Counted from the stretch's first letter, positions 39,633 to 58,178 are shown. The stretch is DNA of 64,000 nt from an uncultured delta proteobacterium (GCA_963848295.1 CAWKDB010000011.1:1-64000), one strand, 5' to 3'. Made by a program: numbers and translations. The notes: a model not told the origin generated them from the letters alone.

Positions 39633-40409
39633 TTATGCGGCCTTCTTCTTTTCGGCGCGCTCGATCAGAGCCGGCGTCACGACCAGCGACCGGCCGCGCG
39701 GAATGATCAGGCCATCGCGCGCGAGCTGGTTGAACGCGCGCGAGATCGTCTCGCGGCAGCTGCCGATCATGTTCGCCAGCTCTTGCTGGGTCGGGCGGCG
39801 GCGAACGACGAGCCCATCGGGGCCCGACGCGCCCTCTTCGCGAGCGAGGCCGACCAGGCGATGGATCAGGCGCTCGTTGACGTCGCACAGCGCGAGCTGC
39901 GCGATCGTTTCATCGGCGCGGCGCAGCCGGCGAGCCATCTCGCCGAGCAAGTTCATCGCGGTACGCGGGTGCGCCTGCATGTGGCGCATCAGATCCTCGC
40001 GCGACAGCACGAGCAGCGTCGTGGGCTCGATCGCGAGACAGTGCGCCGAGCGCGGGCCCTGGTCGAACAGCGACATCTCGCCGAACGAATCGCCGGCGCG
40101 GAGCAGCGACAGCGTGACCTCACGGCCGCTCTCGCCGAACATCACGACCTTCACGCGGCCGGACATGATCACGAACATCGAGTCGCCGGGCTCGTCCTGC
40201 GTGACGACCGCGGCGCCGACCGCGACCTTGCGGATCGCGATCCGCGCGGTGAGGTCCTCGATCGCCGAGATCGGGAGCGCAGCAAACAGCGGCGCGCGCG
40301 CGATCGTGGCGCGGATCCGAGCGGGGTCTTCGCCTCCGCGCAGCTCCGCCATGGGGCGAACTGGGATCGCAGGCGAAACTGATGGGCGAGCGATTCCAAC
40401 GAGCGTCAT
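39633..40409 (-). CDS. Crp/Fnr family transcriptional regulator
   Basis: [14 protein letters not shown] (cNMP pocket) and [18 protein letters not shown] (HTH). Confidence 0.92.
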
Positions 40410-45520: not shown

Positions 45521-45592
45521 GCCGCTGTAGCTCAGTGGTAGAGCAATGGTTTCGTAAACCATAGGTCCCCGGTTCAAACCCGGGCAGCGGCT
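45521..45592 (+). tRNA. tRNA-Thr (anticodon CGT)
   Basis: Acceptor stem GCCGCTG/CAGCGGC, anticodon arm ATGGT-TTCGTAA-ACCAT, T-arm CCCGG-TTCAAAC-CCGGG. Confidence 0.96.
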
Positions 45593-45683
45593 CGGAACAA
45601 GGTTGCTCGTGCGGCCGGCGACCTCGCATTAAGCTTCGATCGGGACGGGCCGCACTCGCGCAGCGCGATGTTACGGTGGCGCG

Positions 45684-46421: not shown

Positions 46422-46472
46422 TTCGTGACCCCAAGAGGAATCGAACCTCTGGCCTACGCTTTAGGAAAGCGC
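46422..46472. repeat. att site (duplicated 3' part of tRNA-Arg, integrase-proximal)
   Basis: TTCGTGACCCCAAGAGGAATCGAACCTCTGGCCTACGCTTTAGGAAAGCGC, identical to 58101-58151. Confidence 0.96.
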
Positions 46473-46544
46473 GGGGCGCGCTCGTTCGGTTAGTTGCCAT
46501 GATATGGCACGGCATGTTTTCTCGACGGCGGCCGGTGGTTTATA

Positions 46545-46597
46545 GGTGACTAGACATGGCGTGATATGCGACGATTGGTGACTAGAATGGTGACTAA
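46545..46597 (+). repeat. integrase arm-type repeats (left): GGTGACTAG, TGGTGACTAG, TGGTGACTAA
   Basis: Copies at 46545-46553, 46576-46585 and 46588-46597; the same motif recurs at the right end. Confidence 0.75.
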
Positions 46598-46618
46598 TCA
46601 CCGCCATCGGAGGTCGCC

Positions 46619-47959
46619 ATGAAGCGAAGGTTCAACGAGAAGTCGGTCGCCGCTCTCGCGCTGCCGCCGGGCAAGGCGCAGCTCGTCGTCTGGGACACCG
46701 AGGTCACCGGGTTTGGCCTCGTGATCGGCAAGGAAACGCGGACGTTCATCGCCGAAGACCGCATCGACGGCGTGAAGGTCCGCCGCAAGGTCGGGACACT
46801 CGGCCGCGTTCGCGACGACGGGTTGCCGTGGAGCGTCCAGCTCGCCCGAGAGCGCGCAAAGGAGCTGCTCGGCGGCATGGCGGGCGGCATGGCGCCGAAC
46901 GGCCTACGCACGCGCGCAGGCGGCCCGACGCTGCGCGAGGCGCTCGACTTCCACGTCTCCAAGATGGAGCGAGGCGAGAACCGCCGCGGTAAGGTTTGCT
47001 CCCCTCGATCGATCGCTACGCTGCGCGGGTGCGTCGAGCTCCATCTCGCTGACTACCTCGGTCGGCCCCTTCTCGGCCTCACTGCCGATGTGCTCGACGA
47101 CATTCGCATGGCGATCGAGCGAGAAGCCGAGCGGATGGGCGGATCGAATCCGGCGAACCCGCCGGGACGTGCGACGTCGAATCGCATTCTCGCCAACGTG
47201 TCGGCGATCTGGCGCTCGTGGCATCGACGGCATGGGCTTCCGGCATCAAACCCCACCGAGCGGTTGATCGCCGGCGCGCTCAAGCCGCGCAACAACCGGA
47301 TCGCGAATAGCGCCCTACCCGCGTGGCACGCGAAGGTGCTCGCGATGAAGAACCACGTCCGTCGCGACCTGCAGCTCGTCGCGCTGTTCACCGGCGTGCG
47401 AACCGACGGCGTGCGCAACCTGCGATGGGACGATATCAACTTCGACGAAGATCAGCTCCACGTCGCGCGAGCGAAGGGCGACCGACCGTACACACTGCCG
47501 TTGGTCGGAACCGTGCGCGCAATCCTCGAAGCGCGGCGTAAGGAGAACGCGAAGAAATTCAAGGAAGACGGTGGCGACCGCGGGTTCGTTTTCCCGACGT
47601 GGGCGCGTGACGGTAAGAAGGTGATCGCGACGGCCGAGGCGAAAGAGCGCTGTAATGTCCTCGACGCGCGCGGGAACCCGAAGCGCACCGAAGACGGCGA
47701 CTACGTGCGCGAGACGTACCTGCCGGGGATCCAGGCGACGCGTAAGACGTTCAACAGCGTGGCGATCGAGATTGGCGTACCGCTCGAAGCGCGTGAGGCG
47801 CTGATGAATCACGAGGGTCACGGCGTGAACGTGAAATCGTACGGCTTCCCGCAGAACTGGGACTACCTCGCCGAGCAAGCCGCTTTGATCGAGGCCGCGC
47901 TCTGGAAGCGGTTGAAGGCGGACCCGAAGGCGAAGCGCGCGAAGCTGCGTGCGGTATGA
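46619..47959 (+). CDS. int: tyrosine integrase with N-terminal arm-DNA-binding domain (P4-like)
   Basis: GGAGG RBS; VWDTEVTGFGL...ARERA arm domain; FTGVR (R), AKG (K), QATR, LMNH, SY. Confidence 0.9.
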   Translation: MKRRFNEKSVAALALPPGKAQLVVWDTEVTGFGLVIGKETRTFIAEDRIDGVKVRRKVGTLGRVRDDGLPWSVQLARERAKELLGGMAGGMAPNGLRTRAGGPTLREALDFHVSKMERGENRRGKVCSPRSIATLRGCVELHLADYLGRPLLGLTADVLDDIRMAIEREAERMGGSNPANPPGRATSNRILANVSAIWRSWHRRHGLPASNPTERLIAGALKPRNNRIANSALPAWHAKVLAMKNHVRRDLQLVALFTGVRTDGVRNLRWDDINFDEDQLHVARAKGDRPYTLPLVGTVRAILEARRKENAKKFKEDGGDRGFVFPTWARDGKKVIATAEAKERCNVLDARGNPKRTEDGDYVRETYLPGIQATRKTFNSVAIEIGVPLEAREALMNHEGHGVNVKSYGFPQNWDYLAEQAALIEAALWKRLKADPKAKRAKLRAV

Positions 47960-47973
47960 GCACATACCGCATC

Positions 47974-48006
47974 ATGTCTTGACATATCGTCAATCCTTGT
48001 TAAGAT
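47974..48006 (+). promoter_or_regulatory. sigma70-like promoter with overlapping palindromic operator(s) for the TA operon
   Basis: TTGACA (47979-47984), 16 nt, TAAGAT (48001-48006); palindromes ATGTC-TT-GACAT and TTGAC-ATATC-GTCAA. Confidence 0.65.
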
Positions 48007-48298
48007 GGACTCGACGATGAGGGAGCCGCTCCCACCGAGTACGGTCAAGCGGCTGCTCGTCGCCATCCTGGCGGGGGGCATACTCGCGTTCACGAAACAT
48101 GCGTACGAGGAGATGGCAAAGGACAACCTGACGGAGATCGACGTGCGCAACACGCTACGCGCCGGCACGGCGAGTCCGGGCGAGCTCGAGCGAGGCACCT
48201 ACCGCTACCGCGTCAGGACGTCGCGCATGGCCGCCGTCGTCGCGTTCCGGTCGGAGTCACATGCGGTCGTCGTCACGGCGTGGAGATTCAAGAGCTAG
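48005..48298 (+). CDS. DUF4258-like (RelE/BrnT-fold) putative toxin
   Basis: FTKHAYEEM..DNLT..DV...L..G...YRYRV...VVVTAW; lies upstream of an antitoxin-like gene; the true start may be ATG 48017. Confidence 0.7.
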   Translation: MDSTMREPLPPSTVKRLLVAILAGGILAFTKHAYEEMAKDNLTEIDVRNTLRAGTASPGELERGTYRYRVRTSRMAAVVAFRSESHAVVVTAWRFKS

Positions 48299-48336
48299 AT
48301 CCCAAACAGCGGACGTAACCCGCGGAGGGAAACAAG

Positions 48337-48882
48337 ATGAAGTGCTTGCCGTGCGGTCACGCGATGACCACCAAACGAGAGAACGTGCCGTACACGGCCC
48401 TTCCGGGGGCCGTGCTGGTCGGCGTGCCTGTGAGCCGTTGCCCGAGCTGCGGCGAGTACGAGGTTGCCATCCCGGCGATCGACGAATTGAACCGCGTGCT
48501 CGCTGCCGCGGTGGTACGCAAGCCGACGCGACTGAGTGGCGGTGAGGTTCGTTTTCTGCGTACGTACCTCGGCTATTCGGGCGCGGACTTCGCCAAGTTG
48601 ATCGGCAGCGATCCGGCCACGGTCTCGCGATGGGAAGGCGACAAACAGCCGCTCGGCCATCACACTGATCTGCTCTTGCGCGCGCTCGTGGTGCTCGACA
48701 AGAAGGTCGACCAATACCCGATTACCAAATTCGCCGAGATCGGCGACGCCGCGGCCGCCACGCTGCGCTACGCGTTCAAGCCCGCGGCTAAGAAGTGGAA
48801 GCCGACGGAATTGCTCGGCCGCGTGAGCAGGCCGTTGTTAGCACTCGCGCCCGATCCCGCCGCTGTCAGGGTGTTGCGGTAG
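48337..48882 (+). CDS. MqsA/YgiT-type zinc finger + XRE-HTH antitoxin
   Basis: CLPC...CPSCGE; LSGGEVRFLRTYLGYSGADFAKLIG...TVSRWE. Confidence 0.8.
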   Translation: MKCLPCGHAMTTKRENVPYTALPGAVLVGVPVSRCPSCGEYEVAIPAIDELNRVLAAAVVRKPTRLSGGEVRFLRTYLGYSGADFAKLIGSDPATVSRWEGDKQPLGHHTDLLLRALVVLDKKVDQYPITKFAEIGDAAAATLRYAFKPAAKKWKPTELLGRVSRPLLALAPDPAAVRVLR

Positions 48883-48998
48883 GGTCTTCGTGTCGCACTC
48901 GGAGGTCTGATCCACCGACGAGCCGGTTCCAACTACCTCGCTGGGCCGGGCGCGGCACCCTTTCAAGGGTCGAGCGCCGAGGGTGAAGCGAGGCACCT

Positions 48999-49637
48999 TT
49001 GGCAGTTCTGAGACCGCCCGAACGACCCGACGCACGACAACCGATCGCTAACAGGCGAAGCGCGACGATCGAGACGCGGCATTGGTGGGACAAGTTCACG
49101 ATGGAGTGGGCGTGGCTCGCAGTGCTGCCAATGGCACAACGACTCGTCGACGAGCGCGCGCGGCACATTCGCGTGTGGAACTATCGCAACGAGCTCGCGG
49201 ACGCGTGCAACGCTGTCGCCGCGTTTCATGGTGACGCCGCGATCCGCGAGCCAGTATTCGTCGAGCTTCATCGCGAATTCCTCAAGGCGGATGCGGAGGC
49301 TGCCCCGTACACGGCGAAGCACTCTGGGCTCGAGACATTTCGCGAGCGAGCGTTCGACGAAGACGACACCGTCGAGAAAGCAGCGCGCACGTTGCTCGCC
49401 CAGCACGGCTTTAGCCCAGCGCGGCTTAGGCGTGGTGCCGAGCGCGACAAGACCGCAGAGCGGCACTCCGTGGCCCTGCGCGAGAAATACGAGGACGAGC
49501 GCGCCGTATGGCAGGGACTTCTTGGTGAGGTGACAGCCGGTCGGCGCTACAACGCGGGCGGCGTCCCATTGACGTCAGCACGAATCGAAAAAATGATCGT
49601 CGCGCTCGATGCAAAGCTAAACGCGCTGCCTGCCTAA
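48999..49637 (+). CDS. hypothetical protein (element cargo)
   Basis: Open frame with natural-looking composition; start uncertain (possibly ATG near 49100). Confidence 0.5.
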   Translation: MAVLRPPERPDARQPIANRRSATIETRHWWDKFTMEWAWLAVLPMAQRLVDERARHIRVWNYRNELADACNAVAAFHGDAAIREPVFVELHREFLKADAEAAPYTAKHSGLETFRERAFDEDDTVEKAARTLLAQHGFSPARLRRGAERDKTAERHSVALREKYEDERAVWQGLLGEVTAGRRYNAGGVPLTSARIEKMIVALDAKLNALPA

Positions 49638-49721
49638 TCAAAAAGGCGGATAGCGAACCGGGGACAGATCTCGATCCTCGCTGTCCGTAGTTCGGATCAC
49701 GCGACTGCCCGACAAAAGGGC

Positions 49722-49952
49722 ATGTCCAAGCGTCAGACCGACGAAGAACCAACGCCGCTAGACCTCGAGCGAGCGGTCGACATCCATGAGGTGTCGGAGC
49801 TGCTCGGTCTCGCCGAGATCACGATCCGGCAACAGCACGCGCGCGGCGTGGGGCCGCGGGCATTCCGCATCGGCCGCGCGATCCGGTGGCGCCTTGCCGA
49901 CGTCCTCGCTTTCCGCGACGCGCGCATGGTCGGAAAGCGAGTGGCGCCGTGA
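49722..49952 (+). CDS. AlpA/excisionase-family HTH protein
   Basis: VDIHEVSELLGLAEITIR....RGVGPRAFRIGRAIRWRLADV. Confidence 0.85.
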   Translation: MSKRQTDEEPTPLDLERAVDIHEVSELLGLAEITIRQQHARGVGPRAFRIGRAIRWRLADVLAFRDARMVGKRVAP

Positions 49953-50158
49953 CCTCGCTCGGTCCGCTCGCGACGATGCTGATCGAGCGTTTGCGTTGCG
50001 CGCTTGCGCTCGTCGACGATCTTGATCCCGCCGAGCAAGATGCGGTGATCGGTGCGCTCGTCAGCGATCTGCGCGCTCGTCGCCCGGTTGCCGTCGCGCC
50101 GCTCGGGGTTCTTCCACCGCCGACGGATCCGATTCGAGACCCGCGAGGTGTGCGATGA
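49949..50158 (+). CDS. hypothetical protein
   Basis: GTGA and ATGA overlaps on both sides. Confidence 0.55.
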   Translation: MTSLGPLATMLIERLRCALALVDDLDPAEQDAVIGALVSDLRARRPVAVAPLGVLPPPTDPIRDPRGVR

Positions 50159-50631
50159 GCAACGACGACGATATCCCGTGGCCGACGCACACCGAGGTCG
50201 ACGAGATCAGTCGCCGCAACGTCGCCGAGGCGGTCGCCGAGGCGGAGCAAGAGCGAGCCGAGTTGATCGACGACGATATGGCCGAGCTGTCGATCGCCGT
50301 CGCCGCGCTCAAGGAGCTGCGCGAGATGGACATGTCGGCGTTTGCGCCGGAAACGCTTGTCGCGATCCTCAAACTCGCTCAAGAGACAATCGATGTCGCC
50401 GGTAGCGTGCGCCTCGATGGGCTGCGAGGACTCGGTGGGTGCCTCGAAGATCTGACACCACGCGAGATGTCTCGCCTCGACGTCTCGAGGCGAGACGAAT
50501 CGACGGCGCGTCAGATGGCCGAGATGCCCGATGATCTCTACGAGCAGGTCAAGACGGGCGCGATGAAGCCGCGCCGCGCACAGCAACTCATCAACCGCGC
50601 TCGCATCCGCGCGATGTACGGGACGCCGTGA
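50155..50631 (+). CDS. hypothetical acidic helical protein (possible C-terminal HTH)
   Basis: Coupled to its neighbours within the replication operon. Confidence 0.6.
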   Translation: MSNDDDIPWPTHTEVDEISRRNVAEAVAEAEQERAELIDDDMAELSIAVAALKELREMDMSAFAPETLVAILKLAQETIDVAGSVRLDGLRGLGGCLEDLTPREMSRLDVSRRDESTARQMAEMPDDLYEQVKTGAMKPRRAQQLINRARIRAMYGTP

Positions 50632-51683
50632 CCATCAACGTCGACGCCATCCGCGCGGCGCTCGCGCCGATCGCGATCTTCGAGTCGCAAGGCGTCGACG
50701 TTCTCGATCGCGGCGCTGAGCTGCGCACGAACCTCTGTCCGATCTGCGGCGAGCGTTCGCGCCGCGCGGTCAAGGTGAACACTGAAACCGGCGCGTGGAA
50801 GGATCACGCGAAGGGTTGCAAGGGCGACATCTTCCGGTTGCTCGCGGGCTACGCCGGGCTCGACGTTGCTCGCGAGTATCCGCGCGTCCTCGAGCTTGCG
50901 GCGCAGATCGCCGGCATCGCGAATATCACCAGCCCTGAGATCGAGAAGCTCGTTGCCGAGCGGCGTCGCACGTCCGCCGAGCGGCGTGAACGCAACGAAG
51001 TCGCGCGTGCCGCAGCTCGAGCTCGCATGCCCGGGGTCTGGGCCTCGCTCGCGACCCGTCACGCCGGCGGCGAGGCGTACCTGCGCGACGATCGCGGCAT
51101 CAACCCTGCGACGTTGCGCGATCACGGCGACGTCGTGCGGTACTCGTCGCGCGGCGAGCCCGCGGTAGCGCTTCGCGACCTCGAGAGCGGCGACGTCGTC
51201 GGCGTGCAGTACCGCCGCGTGCTGCCCGGCGATCCGAAGACCCCAGCTGAGACCGGCTCCCAGTTCGCCGGCTCGTGTCTCTACGGGCGGATCGCCGACC
51301 TCGATCCGGACGGCGTCGACGTTGCGGTTGTCGTCGAAGGTCTCGCCGACACGCTCGCGGCGCGGCTGGCGTTCCCGGGCTGCGCGATCTTCGGCGCGCC
51401 TGGTGCTGGCCAGCTCGAGACGGTTACGGCGGCGGTTGCCGCGCGCGTCGCCGAGTGTCGCGGTTGGCTGCTGATCGTGCCGGACGACGACGACGCAGGC
51501 GCGGACCACACAGCGGCGGCGATCGTCGCCGCGCGAGACGCTGGCCTCACTCTCGCTGCCGACAACGCCGGACTCGAAGGCGCATCGACGGTTCGACTCG
51601 TCGACCTCGGCGAGCACCACGATCTTGCCGATGCATGGCGCCATCCCGGTTGGTGCTGGCAGTGGCCACGGAGAACGACATGA
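50628..51683 (+). CDS. DNA primase (zinc finger + TOPRIM)
   Basis: CPIC...H..GC.GDIF zinc finger, YLRDDRGI, VVEGLAD, IVPDDDDAG. Confidence 0.82.
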   Translation: MTINVDAIRAALAPIAIFESQGVDVLDRGAELRTNLCPICGERSRRAVKVNTETGAWKDHAKGCKGDIFRLLAGYAGLDVAREYPRVLELAAQIAGIANITSPEIEKLVAERRRTSAERRERNEVARAAARARMPGVWASLATRHAGGEAYLRDDRGINPATLRDHGDVVRYSSRGEPAVALRDLESGDVVGVQYRRVLPGDPKTPAETGSQFAGSCLYGRIADLDPDGVDVAVVVEGLADTLAARLAFPGCAIFGAPGAGQLETVTAAVAARVAECRGWLLIVPDDDDAGADHTAAAIVAARDAGLTLAADNAGLEGASTVRLVDLGEHHDLADAWRHPGWCWQWPRRTT

Positions 51684-52999
51684 GTGGAGCGAAGCGATCG
51701 CGTGCGCGTCTCGAAGTCATCGAGGCCGACGACCGGCCGACGATCACGCCTCAGCAACGCGACGAGGACTTCCGACGCGACGACAAAGGGCGGATCTACA
51801 CGACGCAAGCCAACATCGCGCTTGCGATGAGAAAGCTCGGTGTGACCGTTCGCTACGATCGGTTCGCCGGCCACGAGCTCGTCGCTGGTCTGCCGGGATT
51901 CGGACCGCGCCTCGACGACGCCGCGATGAACCGACTGCGCCTCGCGATCGACTCCGAATTCACGTTTCGGATCACAAAGGATTTCTTCTACGACGTGGTC
52001 TCTGATCGCGCGCGGCAGAATTCATTTCACCCCGTCGTCGAATACCTCGCCGCTCGCACGTGGGACAAGGTCGAGCGGATCTCCACATGGCTTAGCGACT
52101 ACGCCAGCGCCGAGAATTCGCCTTACGTGCGCGCAGTGTCGCGACTGAGTCTCGTCGCAGCCGCGCGGCGCGTGCGTGACCCAGGCTGCAAATTCGACGA
52201 GATGCTCGTGCTCGAGTCGGCGCAGGGTACGAACAAGTCGACCGCGCTGCGCACGCTCGCGGTGCGTGACGAGTGGTTCGTCGACGATCTCCCGCTCGGC
52301 GCCGACACGAAACGGCTCATGGAGGCGACCGCCGGCCGCTGGATCGTCGAAGCCGGCGAACTCAAGGGCATGAGCAAAGGCGATGTCGCGACGCTCAAGG
52401 CGTACCTGTCGCGCCAGACCGATCAAGCTCGGCTTTCATACGGTCGCAAAGAAACGATCGCGCCACGGCAATTCGTCATCATTGGCACGACGAACGAGAC
52501 CGAGGGCTACCTCAAAGACTCGACCGGCAACCGTCGATTCTGGCCAATCCGCGTCAAAGCGTTCGACCTCGACAAGTTACGGCGCGACCGCGATCAACTC
52601 TGGGCTGAGGCTGCGAAGGCCGAAGCCGACGGCGAGAGTATCCGGCTCGATCCGGCGCTGTATCAGCATGCCGAGGTCGAGCAAGACGCGCGGCGCGCCG
52701 ATGACCCGATGGTGATCTTGCTGAGCGAGCACCTCGGCGACGTGTGCGGCAAGTTGCGGACGCTCGATGCCTGGAAGGTTATCGGCGTCGAGCCCGGCAA
52801 GGCGACGCAAGATCAGAACGTCCGCCTCGGCGCAGCCATGCGCGAGCTCGGGTGGGAACGCAAGCAACGGCGGTTCAACGGCGGCGTGGAGTGGGCCTAC
52901 GTCCGAGGATCGGACGCCGAGCGCGAAGTACCGATCGAGGTTGAAGTCGAAATCGGCTTCGACAAGCAACAGCGAGTGAAGGTGCGCCGCCATGCGTAA
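51680..52999 (+). CDS. VapE/VirE-family helicase-like ATPase
   Basis: FHPV..YL...WD..ERI, PGCKFDEMLVLESAQGTNKST, WIVEAGEL, GTTN, LKDSTGNRRFWPI, RDQLWAEA. Confidence 0.88.
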   Translation: MSGAKRSRARLEVIEADDRPTITPQQRDEDFRRDDKGRIYTTQANIALAMRKLGVTVRYDRFAGHELVAGLPGFGPRLDDAAMNRLRLAIDSEFTFRITKDFFYDVVSDRARQNSFHPVVEYLAARTWDKVERISTWLSDYASAENSPYVRAVSRLSLVAAARRVRDPGCKFDEMLVLESAQGTNKSTALRTLAVRDEWFVDDLPLGADTKRLMEATAGRWIVEAGELKGMSKGDVATLKAYLSRQTDQARLSYGRKETIAPRQFVIIGTTNETEGYLKDSTGNRRFWPIRVKAFDLDKLRRDRDQLWAEAAKAEADGESIRLDPALYQHAEVEQDARRADDPMVILLSEHLGDVCGKLRTLDAWKVIGVEPGKATQDQNVRLGAAMRELGWERKQRRFNGGVEWAYVRGSDAEREVPIEVEVEIGFDKQQRVKVRRHA

Positions 53000-53176
53000 C
53001 CCCGTAACCCCCGTCAAGGGCCGTCACCCCTATCTCTACGAGTGCCCGCGAGCGGTTCTTAGCAGCTGCTATTTCTTTCTTTCTAAAAAAGGGGAGTTAC
53101 GGGGATTACGGAGCGGATCGTCGACGGGGAACGCCGTAACCAGCGGGGGTACGGCGCCCGGGTACGGGGATTACGC
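52995..53176. repeat. putative replication origin: CGTAACC / GGTTACG-type iterons around an AT-rich core
   Basis: CGTAACCCC twice and CCGTCACCCC; ATTTCTTTCTTTCTAAAAAA (53071-53090); then inverted GGAGTTACGGGGATTACGG, CCGTAACC, GGGGTACGG, GGTACGGGGATTACG. Confidence 0.65.
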
Positions 53177-53257
53177 CGGATACCTCACAGCAGCAGAGCA
53201 GCAGGACCGCGGTGTAAATCGACCCGCCCAGCCGTCGCCCTCAAGCTGCAAAGCTGT

Positions 53258-53692
53258 ATGAGCGAACAGCGTCGTAAGCCGCCAAGCCGACTCGGCATGG
53301 GTCCGACGCCGGGCTCGTTCACCGCAGGCGATCCGCGGATCAACCGCAACGGTCGCCCGCGCAGCGGACTGGCGTTCGCCGAGCGCGTGCGCGAGCGGAT
53401 CGATCCCGACATGATGATCGACCTCGCGATGCGCGTCGCCGAAGACACGGGGATGACGCCTGCGGAGCGTTTGGCTGCGCTGTGGCCGCTGATCGACCGC
53501 GGATTCATCAAACCACCGGCGCAGCTCGAAGCGCACGTCACAGGCAACGCTACGCCGTCCTATGACCTATCGAAGCTGCCGCTCGACGAGCGCCGCGCGT
53601 TGCTCGAGAAGCTGCGCGCGTTGCGCACCACCTCACCAGACGAAGACCCGCGGTTACCGGAACCAGCGGTCTCCGACGACGTTAGCGAATAG
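53258..53692 (+). CDS. DUF5681-like putative terminase small subunit
   Basis: GSFTAGDPRINRNGRPR motif, LIDRGF.KP, YDLSKL..DE; lies upstream of terL. Confidence 0.6.
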   Translation: MSEQRRKPPSRLGMGPTPGSFTAGDPRINRNGRPRSGLAFAERVRERIDPDMMIDLAMRVAEDTGMTPAERLAALWPLIDRGFIKPPAQLEAHVTGNATPSYDLSKLPLDERRALLEKLRALRTTSPDEDPRLPEPAVSDDVSE

Positions 53693-53750
53693 TCACCACG
53701 ATAGTCGCCACACGAACCCGCAACGACTTCCAACCCAGCGAGAACACACG

Positions 53751-54062
53751 ATGTCCGTTGTTAAAGCCGCACCCCGTGACGCGCGCGCCAATCACTGGCG
53801 CCCTGACGTCGACGGCGCAACCGGCATCACACGCCGGCGCTACCGCGGCCGACTGCGGCGTGGCCACCCGACCGCAGCGAGCGACGACGCGGTCGACGTG
53901 CGGCTCGCGATCGCCGAGCTCCAGGCCGCGCACGAGATGCTCGTGCGCTGTGACGACGCGTCCGACATCGAGCGCGAGCAGCTCAAGCGCACCGCCTTCG
54001 CCAAGATCGCGCTCGCTGGGCGCGCCGTTGACGAGGTGACGTTGCGCCGGGGTGTCCGATGA
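53751..54062 (+). CDS. hypothetical protein
   Basis: ATG at 53751; ATGA overlap with the next gene. Confidence 0.55.
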   Translation: MSVVKAAPRDARANHWRPDVDGATGITRRRYRGRLRRGHPTAASDDAVDVRLAIAELQAAHEMLVRCDDASDIEREQLKRTAFAKIALAGRAVDEVTLRRGVR

Positions 54063-54307
54063 CGTTCCCTGTCACCATCGAGCGTGACGAGCGCGGCTGT
54101 CTGTTCCGCATGTCCGCCAAGGCTTGGGCCGCGGGTTGGCACATCGGTGACCGCGTGATCGTCGAGCTCGACAGCGGCGACGACGCAGGGGACGTGGTCG
54201 TGTGCGAGCTCGAGTGCGGTCCCGCCGACGAGCCGATCGCGCGGCCGTTCGCACCGCACGGGATCAAGCGCACAACCGGCGTCGTCCGGCAACCGAGGGC
54301 CGCATGA
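54059..54307 (+). CDS. hypothetical protein
   Basis: Coupled ORF of 82 aa. Confidence 0.5.
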   Translation: MTFPVTIERDERGCLFRMSAKAWAAGWHIGDRVIVELDSGDDAGDVVVCELECGPADEPIARPFAPHGIKRTTGVVRQPRAA

Positions 54308-54372
54308 TCGCCGCTCGTCTGCCGCGACTGCTCGCCGCGCTGGCGTTCTTGTTGTTGTCGAGGTGCGTGTGA
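54304..54372 (+). CDS. 22-aa hydrophobic micro-ORF MIAARLPRLLAALAFLLLSRCV
   Basis: ATGA overlap upstream and GTGA overlap with the terL start. Confidence 0.4.
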   Translation: MIAARLPRLLAALAFLLLSRCV

Positions 54373-55913
54373 GCGACGACCTCGCACAGCTCGAGCGCGA
54401 GCTGTGGAATAGCTTGTGGCGCGACGATCCGCACAAGCGGTTTCTCATGTTCGTCGAGCGCTACTGGCCGGTCGTTACCGGTACGGCGTACGTCGCGAAC
54501 CGCGTCACGACCGCGATCATCGCCGCGCTGCAAGACGTTCTCGACGGTACGACGAGCCGGCTCGTCATCGCCAAGCCGCCAGGCTGCGGCGTGTCGACAC
54601 TGCTCGTGCTGTTCGAGGGCTGTCGCACCGCGATCGACCCGTCGTGGCGCACGATCGCCGCGAGCCACAGCTACGAGCTCGCCGCGACCGCGAGTCGTCG
54701 CGTCCGGCGCTTGGTGACGTCGCCCGAGTTTCGCCAGAGCTTCGAGGTCACGCTGCGCGACGACGCGGCGCAGGTCTCGCTCTGGGAGACGTCCGCCGGC
54801 GGTCACTTCATCGCGGTCGGTCGCGAGAGCCACGTCACCGGCCGCCGCGCCAACGAGATCGTGTGCGACGACTTGAACGCCGCCGCGGATCGTCACAGCA
54901 AGGCCGCACTCGAGCACGCCTGGACGTTCTTCGCCGAGACGCTGTCGACGCGCATCGACAACGACCGCAGCGCGATGGTCGTCTGTGCGCAGCGGACCGC
55001 CGTCGACGACGTGCCCGGCCGACTCGTGGAGCAGGGTGGTTGGACCGTGCTCGAGCTGCCGGCCGAAGACGAGCACGGCGAGCCGACGGCGCCTAACGTG
55101 CTGCCCCGCGAACGCCTCGACGCCTTGAAAGCGCAGATCGGCTCGCTCGCCTACGCGACGCAGTACCTGCAACGCCCGAGCGACGACAGCGAGGCCGTGA
55201 TCCGCCGCGTGTGGTGGCGGTTCTACCGCGCGCCGCACGTCTCCGAGCAAGCGCCGCGACCGGCGGGTTGCGACACCGAGCAACCGGCGATTGCATTGCC
55301 CGAGACGTTCGATCGCGTCGTGATCGCGTGCGACTTGACGTTCGGCTCGCTGACCGGCGACTACGCGGCGGTGCAAGCGTGGGCCGCGAAGGGCGGTGCG
55401 CGCTACCTGCTCGAACAGTGGCGCGCGCGGGCTGGATTCGAGGCGCAGGTCTCGGCGATCGCCGCGATCGCGTCACGCTATCCAGGCTGCAAGGTGCTGA
55501 TCGAGCGAGCGGCGAACGGCGCCGCCGTGATCGAGCAGCTGCGCACCGTCATCCCCGGCGTCGTCGCGGTGCGCCCGCAAGGCCCGAAGCTCGCGCGCAT
55601 CGCCGCCATGGCGCCGACGGTCGAAAGCGGCGCCTGTCTGCTGCCGCTCGGCGCGTCGTGGCTAGGCGACTTCGTCGAAGAGCTAGCCGGCGCGACGAAG
55701 CACGACGACATGGCGGACGCCGCCGCGTACGCGATCGCCGACCTGACGCGCGACTCGATCGACAACGAAGAGCCGTTCGGCGGCTACCTGTTCACCGCCG
55801 ACCAGGGCGACGCGCCGCCGGCTCCCACCGCGTCGGACGATCGCCACCACAGCGCCTTCGATTCCTTTCGTTCGCGCCGCTGCCTCGTCGGCGGCTTCGT
55901 CCCCGACGAGTAA
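54369..55913 (+). CDS. terL: terminase large subunit (Terminase_6/6C type) with degenerate Walker A
   Basis: LVIAKPPGCGVST, SHSYELA, TGRRANEIVCDD, AQRTAVDD, QYLQRP; nuclease IACDLTF, LIERAANG, HDDMADA. Confidence 0.85.
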   Translation: MSDDLAQLERELWNSLWRDDPHKRFLMFVERYWPVVTGTAYVANRVTTAIIAALQDVLDGTTSRLVIAKPPGCGVSTLLVLFEGCRTAIDPSWRTIAASHSYELAATASRRVRRLVTSPEFRQSFEVTLRDDAAQVSLWETSAGGHFIAVGRESHVTGRRANEIVCDDLNAAADRHSKAALEHAWTFFAETLSTRIDNDRSAMVVCAQRTAVDDVPGRLVEQGGWTVLELPAEDEHGEPTAPNVLPRERLDALKAQIGSLAYATQYLQRPSDDSEAVIRRVWWRFYRAPHVSEQAPRPAGCDTEQPAIALPETFDRVVIACDLTFGSLTGDYAAVQAWAAKGGARYLLEQWRARAGFEAQVSAIAAIASRYPGCKVLIERAANGAAVIEQLRTVIPGVVAVRPQGPKLARIAAMAPTVESGACLLPLGASWLGDFVEELAGATKHDDMADAAAYAIADLTRDSIDNEEPFGGYLFTADQGDAPPAPTASDDRHHSAFDSFRSRRCLVGGFVPDE

Positions 55914-55976
55914 ATCGACCCACCTAGCCAACCTTGCAAACCTAGTCTCACCGCCAATGTTATCCGCCACCATTTC

Positions 55977-56049
55977 TGACGTCGCGCCCACAACCCAAGC
56001 TCTTGGCGGTGCTTGCGTTGGCAGACTCCTGCGCTCGGGCGCGACGTCA
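55977..56049 (+). ncRNA. C4/CI-like antisense RNA (three-way junction)
   Basis: Perfect 13-bp closing stem, a 9/10-bp stem with a TCTTGGCGGT loop, and a GCAG-ACTC-CTGC hairpin; complementary sites lie upstream and over the downstream RBS. Confidence 0.7.
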
Positions 56050-56072
56050 CTTCTTGTTTCAGGAGCACCGTC

Positions 56073-57719
56073 ATGAAGAAGAGCCCGTTTTCCCTCCGTC
56101 TGAAATCCCTCCGGTTCTTGTCCGCCGTTGACAGCCCGGCGCAGTCCGCGATCGCGCACGCGCTGATCTTCAAGCGCGACAGCGGCGAGGTCACGCTCAC
56201 CGCGAAGGTCGCGAAGCTGTCCGACGAGCTCGGGCTCGTGTTCGGCTACGCGTTCGCGTCATCGCTCGATGGCGGCACGACACCGTACGTCGACGCGCAG
56301 AACGACGCGATCGATCCGGACTTCCTGAAAGCCGCGATGGACTTCGTCGCAGGCGGCGGCGCGACCGACATAAACCACGACGGTCACCAAGACGGCCGCG
56401 TGATCTTTGCGTGGCCGTTGCTGCCCGACATCAACATGGCGCTCGGCATCGAGTCGAAGACCGTCGGGCTCGCCGTGGCGATCAAGCCGAGCGCGGCGAC
56501 GTTCGCGAAGTTCAAGAGCGGCGAGCTCACCGGGTTCAGCATCGAGGGCACCGGCGCTCGCGAGCCGCTCGCCAAGAGCGACGTCACGAAGCAGCCGAAG
56601 CACGTCGTGTGTTCGAAGTGTGAGAAGTCCACCGCGCCGCTGTCGTACTGCTCGAACTGCGGCAGCGCGCTGAGCGGTGACGAGAAGCCGCCGGTGGCCG
56701 CGTCTGGCGCGAGCGCCGACGAGCTCGAGGACCAGGCCGACAAGGCGATCGCCCACAAGCTGTGGGTCGCGAAGCAACTCGCCGAGCACCTCGACTACCT
56801 CGACGGCATCGCGGCTAGCAGCGGCGTCGACGCGGCGCGCACCGTCGCCGAGCGCAACGTGAGCAGCGTCGGCAACTGGGGTGCGGTGTGGCTCGAGAAG
56901 CGCGGCATCGCGTCGCAGGCTGGCGACGCGTCGTTCGCTCAGATCGTCAAGGCCGCGTTCGCCGTCAACGAAACGGCTCGCAAGGGCCACCGCGAGAAGG
57001 TCGCCGCGGCCCAAAGGACGTTCGACGGCGCGGTCGCCGAGCTCGCCACCAAGCGCGGCATCACGAACGACGCCGCGCGGGCCATCGCGATGAACTTCCC
57101 GACAATCAAGGCGCTGCACGCAGACTGGCAGGAGCTCGACCAGTCGGTGCCCGAGGGCCTCGTCGACATCGCTCAGCCGTACACGAAGGCCATCGACGAC
57201 AAGATCGGCGCACTGCAACGCGAGCGCGTCTCCCACATCGAGGCGACCGCCGCGGCTCGAAACCTCGGCATTTACGAAGCCGAGCTCGCCTTGGTGAAAG
57301 GCAAGACGGCCGACGCGGCGCACGGTCGCGAGTCTCAGCTCGGCCGACTCGAGCGCGAGATCGCCGAAGCGCAGGACGAGCGGTCGACGATTCGCACGGG
57401 CATCACCGAACGCGTCGCGGCCCTGTCGCCGCATCACATCGCCACCGATGCCGCGCAGTCCGCGCTGTTGGCCAAGCGCGCCGAGCTCGCGACCATCGTG
57501 AACGAGAGCCCGGGCGGCCGGCTGTTGCGCAAGGCCGTCGAGCGGTTCCAGAAAGAGCACAAGGTCCCGACGTACGCGCAAGCGATGGCCCGCGCGCTCG
57601 TCGACGACGAGGTCGTGCGCGAGCTGTGGCCGATGCGCGACGAGATGCCGGCAACCGCCGACATCGTCGCGGCACGCAAGGCGCTGGCCGAGCTCGACCG
57701 CGAGCAGACGAGCGCGTAA
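56073..57719 (+). CDS. XkdF-like prohead serine protease fused to a double zinc ribbon and a long helical (scaffold-like) region
   Basis: AGGAG RBS; LSAVDSPAQ, GLVFGYA, VDAQND, DINH, KSGELTGFSIEG; CSKC..CSNCG; Ala/Glu/Arg-rich helices. Confidence 0.72.
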   Translation: MKKSPFSLRLKSLRFLSAVDSPAQSAIAHALIFKRDSGEVTLTAKVAKLSDELGLVFGYAFASSLDGGTTPYVDAQNDAIDPDFLKAAMDFVAGGGATDINHDGHQDGRVIFAWPLLPDINMALGIESKTVGLAVAIKPSAATFAKFKSGELTGFSIEGTGAREPLAKSDVTKQPKHVVCSKCEKSTAPLSYCSNCGSALSGDEKPPVAASGASADELEDQADKAIAHKLWVAKQLAEHLDYLDGIAASSGVDAARTVAERNVSSVGNWGAVWLEKRGIASQAGDASFAQIVKAAFAVNETARKGHREKVAAAQRTFDGAVAELATKRGITNDAARAIAMNFPTIKALHADWQELDQSVPEGLVDIAQPYTKAIDDKIGALQRERVSHIEATAAARNLGIYEAELALVKGKTADAAHGRESQLGRLEREIAEAQDERSTIRTGITERVAALSPHHIATDAAQSALLAKRAELATIVNESPGGRLLRKAVERFQKEHKVPTYAQAMARALVDDEVVRELWPMRDEMPATADIVAARKALAELDREQTSA

Positions 57720-57940
57720 TGCGCGACGAGTGGAGCATCGGTTTCGGCGACGCGGTCGACCTGCGCCACTCGGTCGCCGCACGCGAGCGGCTGCTCGTCA
57801 CCGTTGCTCCCTCGTGGTCGCGCGAGCGGCTCGATGGCTTCCTGCACGCGCACGAGCTCGCGCTCAACGCCCAGCGGTGCACGTGCTCGAGCTGTCCGCT
57901 TCACTCATCTTCGGGGACCGCAGGGCCTGACCTCCTGTAG
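57719..57940 (+). CDS. small hypothetical protein (CxCxxC near the C-terminus)
   Basis: TAATG overlap with the upstream gene. Confidence 0.45.
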   Translation: MRDEWSIGFGDAVDLRHSVAARERLLVTVAPSWSRERLDGFLHAHELALNAQRCTCSSCPLHSSSGTAGPDLL

Positions 57941-58049
57941 CGCGTGAATGGAAGGCTCGCTCCCCAACTTTTCGACGGACGGCGAGTAGCGTTGCTACAA
58001 CGCGGCCGTCGAGCAAGCGCGCAAGACGAAGCGATGACCGACGTCGGGT

Positions 58050-58070
58050 TGGTGACTAACTGGTGACTAG
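58050..58070 (+). repeat. integrase arm-type repeats (right): TGGTGACTAA-C-TGGTGACTAG
   Basis: Same motif as 46576-46597, 30 bp inside the right att. Confidence 0.75.
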
Positions 58071-58100
58071 CGATACGTCGCCAGTAAATTCTTCAATCAT

Positions 58101-58151
58101 TTCGTGACCCCAAGAGGAATCGAACCTCTGGCCTACGCTTTAGGAAAGCGC
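58101..58151. repeat. att site within the intact tRNA-Arg
   Basis: Identical to 46422-46472. Confidence 0.96.
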
Positions 58152-58178
58152 CGCTCTATCCGGCTGAGCTATGGGGTC
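58105..58178 (-). tRNA. tRNA-Arg (anticodon CCT)
   Basis: Reverse complement GACCCCATAGCTCAGCCGGATAGAGCGGCGCTTTCCTAAAGCGTAGGCCAGAGGTTCGATTCCTCTTGGGGTCA. Confidence 0.96.

Follow-up and report, generated by a model that had tools for sequence, protein, structure and literature searches.

The 64,000-nucleotide stretch of an uncultured delta proteobacterium analysed here (GCA_963848295.1, CAWKDB010000011.1:1-64000; hereafter the window) carries, between positions 46422 and 58151, a bounded integrative island of 11,679 bp whose genes are intact and all point in one direction. The island encodes an integrase, a replication module, a TerS-like protein, a large terminase subunit (TerL) and an XkdF-type prohead protease joined to a scaffold-like part. 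It is likely a phage satellite, whose DNA its own TerS and TerL would package into heads formed by the portal and capsid protein of a helper phage, a reading to which the sequence evidence set out below leads us to assign a probability of about 0.55. The ends are marked by two direct repeats of 51 nt, 100% identical, with a spacing of 11,679 bp. The right repeat consists of the 3' 48 nt of a minus-strand tRNA-Arg(CCT) plus 3 nt, the tRNA being called by ARAGORN at 58104-58178 and by the Rfam tRNA model at 58105-58178 (68.2 bits). A first-pass annotation of this DNA had described an 11,679-bp unit between perfect 51-bp repeats of this tRNA, and both the coordinates and the tRNA call agree with it. 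The GC content of the island is 0.664 versus 0.685-0.704 in the flanks, in a genome of 68% GC.

Searches of the island's open reading frames (ORFs) against Pfam, PHROG and NCBIfam, complemented by comparison with related loci, gave the following features (aa, amino acids; HTH, helix-turn-helix).

46422-46472, no strand: attL, left copy of the 51-bp repeat, 100% identical to 58101-58151
46619-47959, plus strand: tyrosine integrase, 446 aa (Phage_integrase 3.3e-7, phrog_1 6.1e-22)
48005-48298, plus strand: DUF4258 protein, toxin-like partner of the MqsA-family gene (PF14076 1.2e-7)
48337-48882, plus strand: MqsA-family zinc-ribbon/HTH antitoxin (TIGR03830 66.2 bits versus a cut-off of 61.8; MqsA_antitoxin, HTH_31)
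48999-49637, plus strand: hypothetical protein, 212 aa, TTG start uncertain (no family or Atlas match)
49722-49952, plus strand: AlpA/excisionase-type HTH regulator (HTH_17 2.6e-4, phrog_66 1.6e-7)
50155-50631, plus strand: hypothetical protein, 158 aa (no Pfam, PHROG or NCBIfam match)
50628-51683, plus strand: DNA primase of the Toprim type (phrog_510 4.6e-16, phrog_47 8.2e-15, Toprim_3 1.2e-3)
51680-52999, plus strand: VapE-type helicase (PF05272 1.9e-69, phrog_256 1.4e-85)
52995-53175, no strand: iteron cluster, predicted replication origin (CGTAAYCCC matches; AT-rich stretch at 53060-53090)
53258-53692, plus strand: TerS-like protein, DUF5681-like, 144 aa (homologues before TerL, Atlas, profile against PDB)
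53751-54062, plus strand: small ORF, 103 aa (no Pfam or PHROG match; weakly similar, 1.8e-4, to a 240-aa ORF that precedes TerS in the related locus L166)
54059-54307, plus strand: small ORF, 82 aa (no Pfam or PHROG match)
54363-55913, plus strand: TerL, large terminase, 516 aa (phrog_38 1.6e-78, Terminase_6C 1.3e-14)
56073-57719, plus strand: predicted XkdF-type prohead protease with helical scaffold-like part, 548 aa (PF14550 1.9e-4, below the Pfam cut-off; phrog_3017 head maturation protease 9e-7)
57719-57940, plus strand: small ORF, 73 aa (gene caller; no Pfam or PHROG match)
58101-58151, no strand: attR, right copy of the 51-bp direct repeat, within the tRNA
58104-58178, minus strand: tRNA-Arg(CCT), integration target (ARAGORN, Rfam)

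Fourteen genes between the repeats are credible, being ORFs with the codon pattern of the genome, and all of them lie on the plus strand; a caller based on third-position GC also proposed two short ORFs of 52 and 83 aa on the minus strand, which have no family match and overlap better plus-strand candidates. The one-way order read at first pass, namely int, a toxin-antitoxin pair, a hypothetical gene, alpA/xis, primase, VapE, iterons, terS-like, terL and an XkdF-like gene, was thereby recovered. The non-coding 260 bp after vapE hold a cluster of the motif CGTAAYCCC: allowing one mismatch, seven of the 21 matches in the window, including all four exact ones, fall within 52995-53175, where about 0.04 would be expected (shuffled mean 15.4 per 64 kb). 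Three lie on one strand and four on the other, inverted around the AT-rich stretch, an anatomy typical of an iteron origin, which the cluster is predicted to be. Three sigma-70-like promoter matches (0.8 expected), which are consensus matches only, stand just 5' of int, the DUF4258 gene and alpA (46561-46588, 47979-48006 and 49569-49597, respectively).

Portal, capsid, adaptor and tail families found no match in any of the 14-15 island ORFs searched. The ORFs left without assignment measure 212, 158, 103, 82 and 73 aa, and the sole stretch big enough to hide a shell protein lies in the 548-aa protein, where it makes up the C-terminal 330 residues. A fusion of protease and capsid in this protein was considered and dropped: in the AlphaFold2 model the C-terminal part is all-helical, devoid of beta structure and unlike the HK97 fold. 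Neither the family searches nor this predicted fold thus revealed the portal or HK97 capsid that, according to the first-pass annotation, one of the hypothetical ORFs might have concealed.

The gene preceding the terminase probably encodes a TerS-like protein. The genes before TerL in 11 loci, this one included, share 21-40% identity (31-40% between the island protein and five of its ten relatives) and have in common an N-terminal GNPxGRP-type motif. DUF5681 was matched by seven of the 11 proteins, and the one from locus L162 matches phrog_2538 (terminase small subunit); the island's own protein has no Pfam or PHROG match, and it scores 0.95 in the Atlas to DUF5681 clusters, which are mostly viral. 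When a profile of the 11 proteins was compared with the PDB, the two best matches were small terminase subunits (E 8.5e-4 and 5.9e-3). The AlphaFold2 model (predicted local distance difference test score, pLDDT, 67.9) contains confident helices only in part, three within residues 37-80 and one at 109-125. In TerL, the Terminase_6C nuclease domain scores 54.9 bits versus a cut-off of 22.6; the nuclease residues D324, E381, D448, D449 and D452 are invariant, and Walker B is kept.

The 548-aa protein was modelled with AlphaFold2 from a 42-sequence alignment (mean pLDDT 67). Residues 1-165 are confidently predicted as beta-rich, 169-212 as a disordered linker, and 215-547 as long helices only. When the N-terminal domain was compared with 48,161 solved chains, the best match was to the prohead protease of T4, gp21 (Z 7.7, root-mean-square deviation 2.9, 109 residues), and His102 and Ser156 are invariant across the 42 XkdF homologues. 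PF14550 (Peptidase_S78_2) reaches 21.9 bits, below its gathering cut-off of 24, and homologues with 45-75% identity in the N-terminal domain carry this family. Foldseek of the whole model against the PDB returned no match at E<=0.001; against BFVD, which holds predicted viral structures, 41 matches at E<=0.001 to prohead protease/XkdF proteins were obtained, the top one being a 542-aa prohead protease. On the strength of the predicted prohead-protease fold and the conserved His/Ser pair, residues 1-165 are modelled as an XkdF-type prohead protease domain, and residues 215-547 are predicted to have a scaffold-like architecture rather than the HK97 fold.

Homologues align only over the N-terminal 30-40% of the protein. 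At the C-terminal end of the phage homologues lies a conserved module of about 45 residues, which the island protein keeps (pLDDT 93-95) and to which it adds a private tail of about 30 aa. The protein resembles the XkdF proteins of tailed phages in its predicted N-terminal fold, His102/Ser156, helical body and C-terminal module, and in lying after TerL in the direction of the head genes; it differs from them in the extra tail and in the linker (171-215, window 56583-56720), which carries a zinc-ribbon-like CxxC..CxxC pattern where most homologues have His-rich GHxH repeats and where the homologue in locus L009 lacks the stretch. Separately, annotations of the cultured Roseobacter RDJL and Rhizobium phages show an XkdF-like domain joined to a DNA methyltransferase, and because of these annotated fusions the domain is not always found in a head-protease context.

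The position of the gene sets it further apart from its phage counterparts. Three annotated loci have the order TerL, portal (phrog_113), MuF-type gene, XkdF-like gene, small ORF, major head protein (phrog_1005), neck and tail, and in seven further loci a capsid gene follows XkdF within 0.5-1.5 kb. Given this gene order, the XkdF gene of phages fills the protease/scaffold slot immediately before the capsid gene, and in real phage head modules, of which three come from this genus, it stands 3.5-8 kb past TerL, adjoining the capsid gene. Among 28 loci in public contigs where both TerL and XkdF are detectable (some contigs being counted in two collections), the gap between the two genes is at least 3.5 kb in 27. 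The single exception is L009, a 4-kb contig of a congener on which the end of a TerL gene (58% identity) is followed after 0.2 kb by an XkdF-scaffold gene, whose product is 36% identical to the island protein over 404 residues, helical part included. Downstream of it lie a small ORF, an IrrE/M78-like gene and others, with no capsid gene among them. In the island the phage arrangement, in which the XkdF gene sits between MuF and capsid genes, is replaced by an XkdF gene directly after TerL and then attR; no capsid gene follows XkdF within 0.5-1.5 kb in the window, in L009 or in the related locus L165.

Relatives of the island were sought through TerL. Of the 138 family genomes, 25 (counting G000) gave matches at E<=1e-20; among the 90 congeners the number was 23, the unpublished genome G088 entering the latter count by its match row only. 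No TerL above 34% identity was found in IMG/VR or in cultured phages, and in a sample of the phylum five of about 395 genomes from outside the genus had TerL matches, all at 36% identity or less. In the congeners the TerL relatives, at 30-58% identity, lie in islands of 10-14 kb. Fourteen related loci were fetched from 12 genomes. Repeats derived from the 3' part of a tRNA flank six of them, as listed below; the remaining eight run to a contig end or show no repeat of this kind.

L160: 26-bp repeat, tRNA-Glu, 11.5 kb
L163: 46-bp repeat, tRNA-Thr, 10.9 kb
L164: 17-bp repeat, tRNA-Ala, 14.3 kb
L169: 24-bp repeat, tRNA-Asp, 10.0 kb
L170: 47-48-bp repeat in three copies, tRNA-Phe, tandem islands of 5.9 kb and 10.1 kb
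L172: 24-bp repeat, tRNA-Glu, 11.3 kb

The related loci encode integrases, AlpA/Xis, several kinds of primase-helicase, a TerS-like gene and TerL, and neither a portal nor a major head protein was matched in the 14 loci (238 ORFs searched against PHROGs at E<=1e-4 and 59 against Pfam). Because its TerL relatives reside in islands of 10-14 kb where portal and capsid matches are absent, the island is not a lone deletion remnant, and the concern raised at first pass, that homologues might always prove to be larger complete prophages, does not apply to TerL homologues of at least 40% identity. The core shared by the group is TerS and TerL, and what follows TerL varies. The XkdF protease-scaffold occurs in only two islands, perhaps three, and two others (L172 and L164) have a different prohead protease after TerL (DUF2213, phrog_530). 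In L168 a 243-aa protein contains a 49-residue segment 43% identical (E 2e-8) to the helical part of the XkdF protein of L009; its direct comparison with the scaffold part of the window's protein is not significant, and the link runs only via L009. The proteins after TerL in other islands (200-270 aa) have a helix-favouring composition, which is a lead only, the genomes being GC-rich. L166 ends 0.7 kb past TerL.

Several other features were noted in these loci and around the insertion site. In the tandem arrangement of L170 (2540-18610), the 5.9-kb island carries an AAA-type ATPase (phrog_10401) and the 10.1-kb island carries TerL. Two more distant TerL islands have a small serine recombinase/invertase beside TerS-TerL, besides a tyrosine integrase (L172 8984-9676 and L173 385-1625). 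A tRNA-Thr(cgt) at 45521-45593 in the window, 830 bp left of attL, appears unoccupied here and is the integration site for related TerL islands in two congeners (L161 and L163). Further left, ARAGORN called a 93-nt tRNA-Arg(ccg) at 40230-40322, for which the Rfam tRNA model at gathering score gave no match (39000-60000 scanned), and which is perhaps an unusual tRNA or a spurious call.

Several observations weigh against a satellite that packages itself with its own terminase, and the first group of them concerns a phage origin. XkdF homologues elsewhere lie nearly all within complete head modules, and the length of 548 aa matches that of phage homologues (about 440-560 aa), so that length gives no pointer to smaller capsids. 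In a tree of 49 TerL sequences (hand-chosen rows, a quick method, no bootstrap), the 11 island TerLs fall into one clade with SH-aLRT support of 95, a point in favour of the satellite reading; the clade also takes in two TerLs of unknown context, one IMG/VR contig and L013, a real phage locus which nests within it, and the TerLs of XkdF-bearing phages, including two prophages of the same genus, fall outside. Among the related loci, TerL of L165 is broken by three stops (one TAG, two TGA) and has tail-assembly genes downstream, and L171 has a tail-fibre-like gene after TerL. In L165 (9325-16549) a TerS-like gene and the broken TerL are followed by a 387-aa protein whose C-terminal end is of XkdF type, and then by lambda-like genes for tail assembly and the tail tip; the locus represents either a prophage in decay or an island to which tail genes belong.

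These facts could be accommodated if the island were itself a decayed prophage, derived by internal deletions from a temperate phage of the L013 type (TerS, TerL, portal, MuF, XkdF, capsid, tail), its terminase and protease-scaffold genes being relics devoid of a present role. L013 is the nearest full phage relative for both TerL (34%) and the XkdF N-terminal domain (61%), and its TerL nests among those of the islands; the broken TerL of L165 with tail genes beside it and the loss of the Walker-A lysine and two more invariant residues from the island's TerL, considered below, would also suit decay. We nevertheless regard such an origin as unlikely. It requires two separate precise deletions that left all flanking ORFs intact, and the adjacency of TerL and XkdF is old, because L009 has it as well at identities as low as 58% and 36%, with both genes open. 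Six more islands of 10-14 kb have intact integrase, primase and TerL genes with different tRNA sites, integrases and replication modules, and the 14 related loci include no complete prophage with a TerL of the island clade. The 51-bp att repeats are perfect, and pairwise dN/dS (the ratio of non-synonymous to synonymous rates) among island TerLs is 0.18-0.46, with dS near saturation.

The second group of adverse points concerns the motor. The canonical Walker-A lysine, in the column where the family profile 'Gvgks' aligns to 'GIGKS' of a solved T7-type TerL, is replaced in the island by valine (V77, codon 54591-54593), which is unique among 11 aligned and 26 further relatives; the latter, the other half of L009 included, all have the lysine, as do the ten other aligned sequences. 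W87C and R91I alter columns invariant in these ten, and 15 of the 16 private changes of the island's TerL fall in the ATPase domain. The island might accordingly be a member of the satellite group with a dead motor, in which K77V abolishes ATP hydrolysis, so that it either relies on a helper TerL, with its own TerL as a nuclease or adaptor, or is immobile. The conservation of the lysine in relatives, the two base substitutions needed for K77V (from an AAG-type codon to GTG) and the clustering of private changes in the ATPase domain while the nuclease residues are kept all favour this possibility. On the other side, the TerL gene has a full-length ORF whose GC at third positions is 0.89, and a lysine unique to this TerL, K71 (54573-54575), lies six residues upstream of V77 and creates the pattern KxxxxGxS, which has the spacing of lambda gpA residues 76-83. 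K76 of lambda gpA is presumably the P-loop lysine, an assignment for which literature searches gave no confirmation. The pair K71/V77 would mean either that the P-loop lysine has been relocated or that the ATPase is dead; the Walker-A lysine may have undergone a natural move to the lambda-type position, and we consider a dead motor somewhat unlikely.

The third group concerns helper and mobility. The genome itself (85% complete, 11 contigs) has no match to the PF05065 capsid or the PF04860 portal families, nor to phrog_1005 or phrog_113, the latter two being weak blanks as the search controls matched in no genome. The helper prophage that the first-pass annotation suggested seeking elsewhere in the genome was thus not found in this 85% complete assembly, which holds a single TerL (Terminase_6C). 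The same annotation had proposed a search for attP/attB junction reads, and no excision joints were present in the sole sequencing run holding the element, a soil metagenome with 0.40 of the sampled words and low-depth contigs; no RNA run was listed as containing it. Elsewhere in the genus, a phrog_1005 capsid gene occurs in four of 90 congeners, and three loci (L180, L181 and L182) contain full modules of TerL, portal, MuF, XkdF-like and capsid genes, with XkdF N-terminal domains 36-44% identical to that of the island; contigs with full XkdF head modules measure 40-70 kb. Judged by gene content, the helper type is present in the genus, and these prophages form a candidate class for the specific helper. 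Their TerLs are only 25-27% identical to that of the island, so that their portals may or may not be compatible with it.

A different function for the same genes would be interference or defence, with TerL, the TerS-like protein and the protease-scaffold as decoys that poison phage assembly or packaging, and the island spreading vertically or by other routes. A scaffold that retains the C-terminal module of phage homologues, a possibly ATPase-defective TerL and a toxin-antitoxin pair aboard would all fit such a role. We give this very little credence: a PADLOC defence search of 14 island proteins returned no match, a full excision and replication set with a predicted origin is present as in transferable satellites, and the relatives occupy six distinct tRNA genes across several species, which implies horizontal movement.

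Known satellites offer partial parallels. The Staphylococcus aureus pathogenicity islands (SaPIs) encode CpmB, a satellite scaffold that acts as a capsid-morphogenesis factor, and the Streptomyces satellite MiniFlayer is not integrative. Phage-inducible chromosomal islands (PICIs) comprise, in the available excerpts of PMC10085698, int, a regulator, pri-rep, a capsid-morphogenesis gene and TerS. Three parts of this set are present in the island, namely an integrase, an AlpA-type regulator (HTH_17, phrog_66) and a primase-replicase (Toprim primase plus VapE), and it is close to Gram-negative PICIs and SaPIs in size (11.7 kb versus a median of 9.5 kb), in a gene that may be a TerS and in the order of int, accessory genes, AlpA, primase-replicase, origin and packaging module, as given in the same excerpts. 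It departs from them in a full-length TerL and a predicted prohead protease domain, where a PICI would use the TerL of its helper and have no further packaging or structural genes. Capsid-forming PICIs (cf-PICIs; Alqurainy et al., bioRxiv 10.1101/2022.09.08.507074; PMC10085698) are, in the portions available, marked off by terL and head-tail adaptor/connector genes, and carry a capsid and a prohead serine protease; a portal is named in the available part of PMC10690885. The island shares with cf-PICIs int, an AlpA-type regulator, a primase-replicase, a TerL of its own beside a putative TerS, and a predicted prohead protease, but these portions also describe capsid, portal and head-tail adaptor/connector genes with only the tails stolen from the helper, whereas in the island major capsid protein, portal and adaptor/connector found no match.

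The P4 features Sid, Psu, Delta and alpha primase-helicase have no Pfam or PHROG match in the island, where replication would depend on the Toprim primase and VapE. MulchRoom and MiniFlayer resemble it in having TerL, a scaffolding protein and a TerS, the last being putative in the island, and differ in encoding a portal and a major capsid protein, plus a head-to-tail adaptor (available text of PMC10690885). EPIPs are described in PMC12822802 with a TerS, an adaptor, a scaffold, a capsid protein and a tape measure; VEIMEs have TerS at most. The view taken at first pass that this gene set fits none of PICI, cf-PICI and P4 is therefore sustained, as TerL and the protease exceed a PICI, the capsid, portal and adaptor of a cf-PICI are missing and no P4 genes are present. 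The literature, supplements aside, yielded no described satellite with TerS and TerL, with or without a protease-scaffold, that is devoid of capsid and portal genes, and a capsid-less satellite with its own terminase is likely a kind not yet described in print.

If the island is such a self-packaging satellite, Int and AlpA would excise it, replication from the iteron origin would fall to the primase and VapE, and TerS-TerL would recognise and package its DNA. The protease-scaffold would co-assemble with the capsid protein and portal of the helper via its conserved C-terminal module, possibly biasing procapsids to a size suited to 11.7 kb, while portal, capsid protein, head completion, tail and lysis would be supplied by a helper not resident in this assembly. 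Alternatively, several copies of the island might fill one normal head, as described in the available parts of the reports on PICMIs and VEIMEs (PMC10803314; 10.1101/2022.07.26.501625).

The broader suggestion of the first-pass annotation, an undescribed satellite family that hijacks a helper head with its own terminase and scaffold-protease, held in part: related capsid-less islands exist and the TerL-XkdF pair recurs in L009, but the common core is limited to TerS and TerL, and the Walker-A lysine is lost in the island. We tentatively propose a satellite lineage with a fixed TerS-TerL core and helper-matched protease/scaffold cassettes that would commandeer the capsid and portal of helpers, standing between PICIs and cf-PICIs. 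The cassettes would be, equally tentatively, XkdF-scaffold here and in L009, DUF2213 in L172 and L164, and a scaffold-only gene in L168.

Satellites known so far borrow the motor of the helper (PICI, P4, PLE) or else build a whole head (cf-PICI, Mulch/Flayer). If the reading as a self-packaging satellite is true, a motor and scaffold-protease unaccompanied by a shell protein or portal would constitute an intermediate solution, which poses the questions of how a foreign TerL docks on the portal of a helper and whether a protease-scaffold encoded by a satellite can re-size the helper capsid. Exchanges of protease/scaffold cassettes around an unchanging TerS-TerL core would then be a readable record of helper switching, and the island would offer an initial way into the satellite-helper systems of a soil lineage with large, GC-rich genomes, about whose phages there is almost no biology to draw on.

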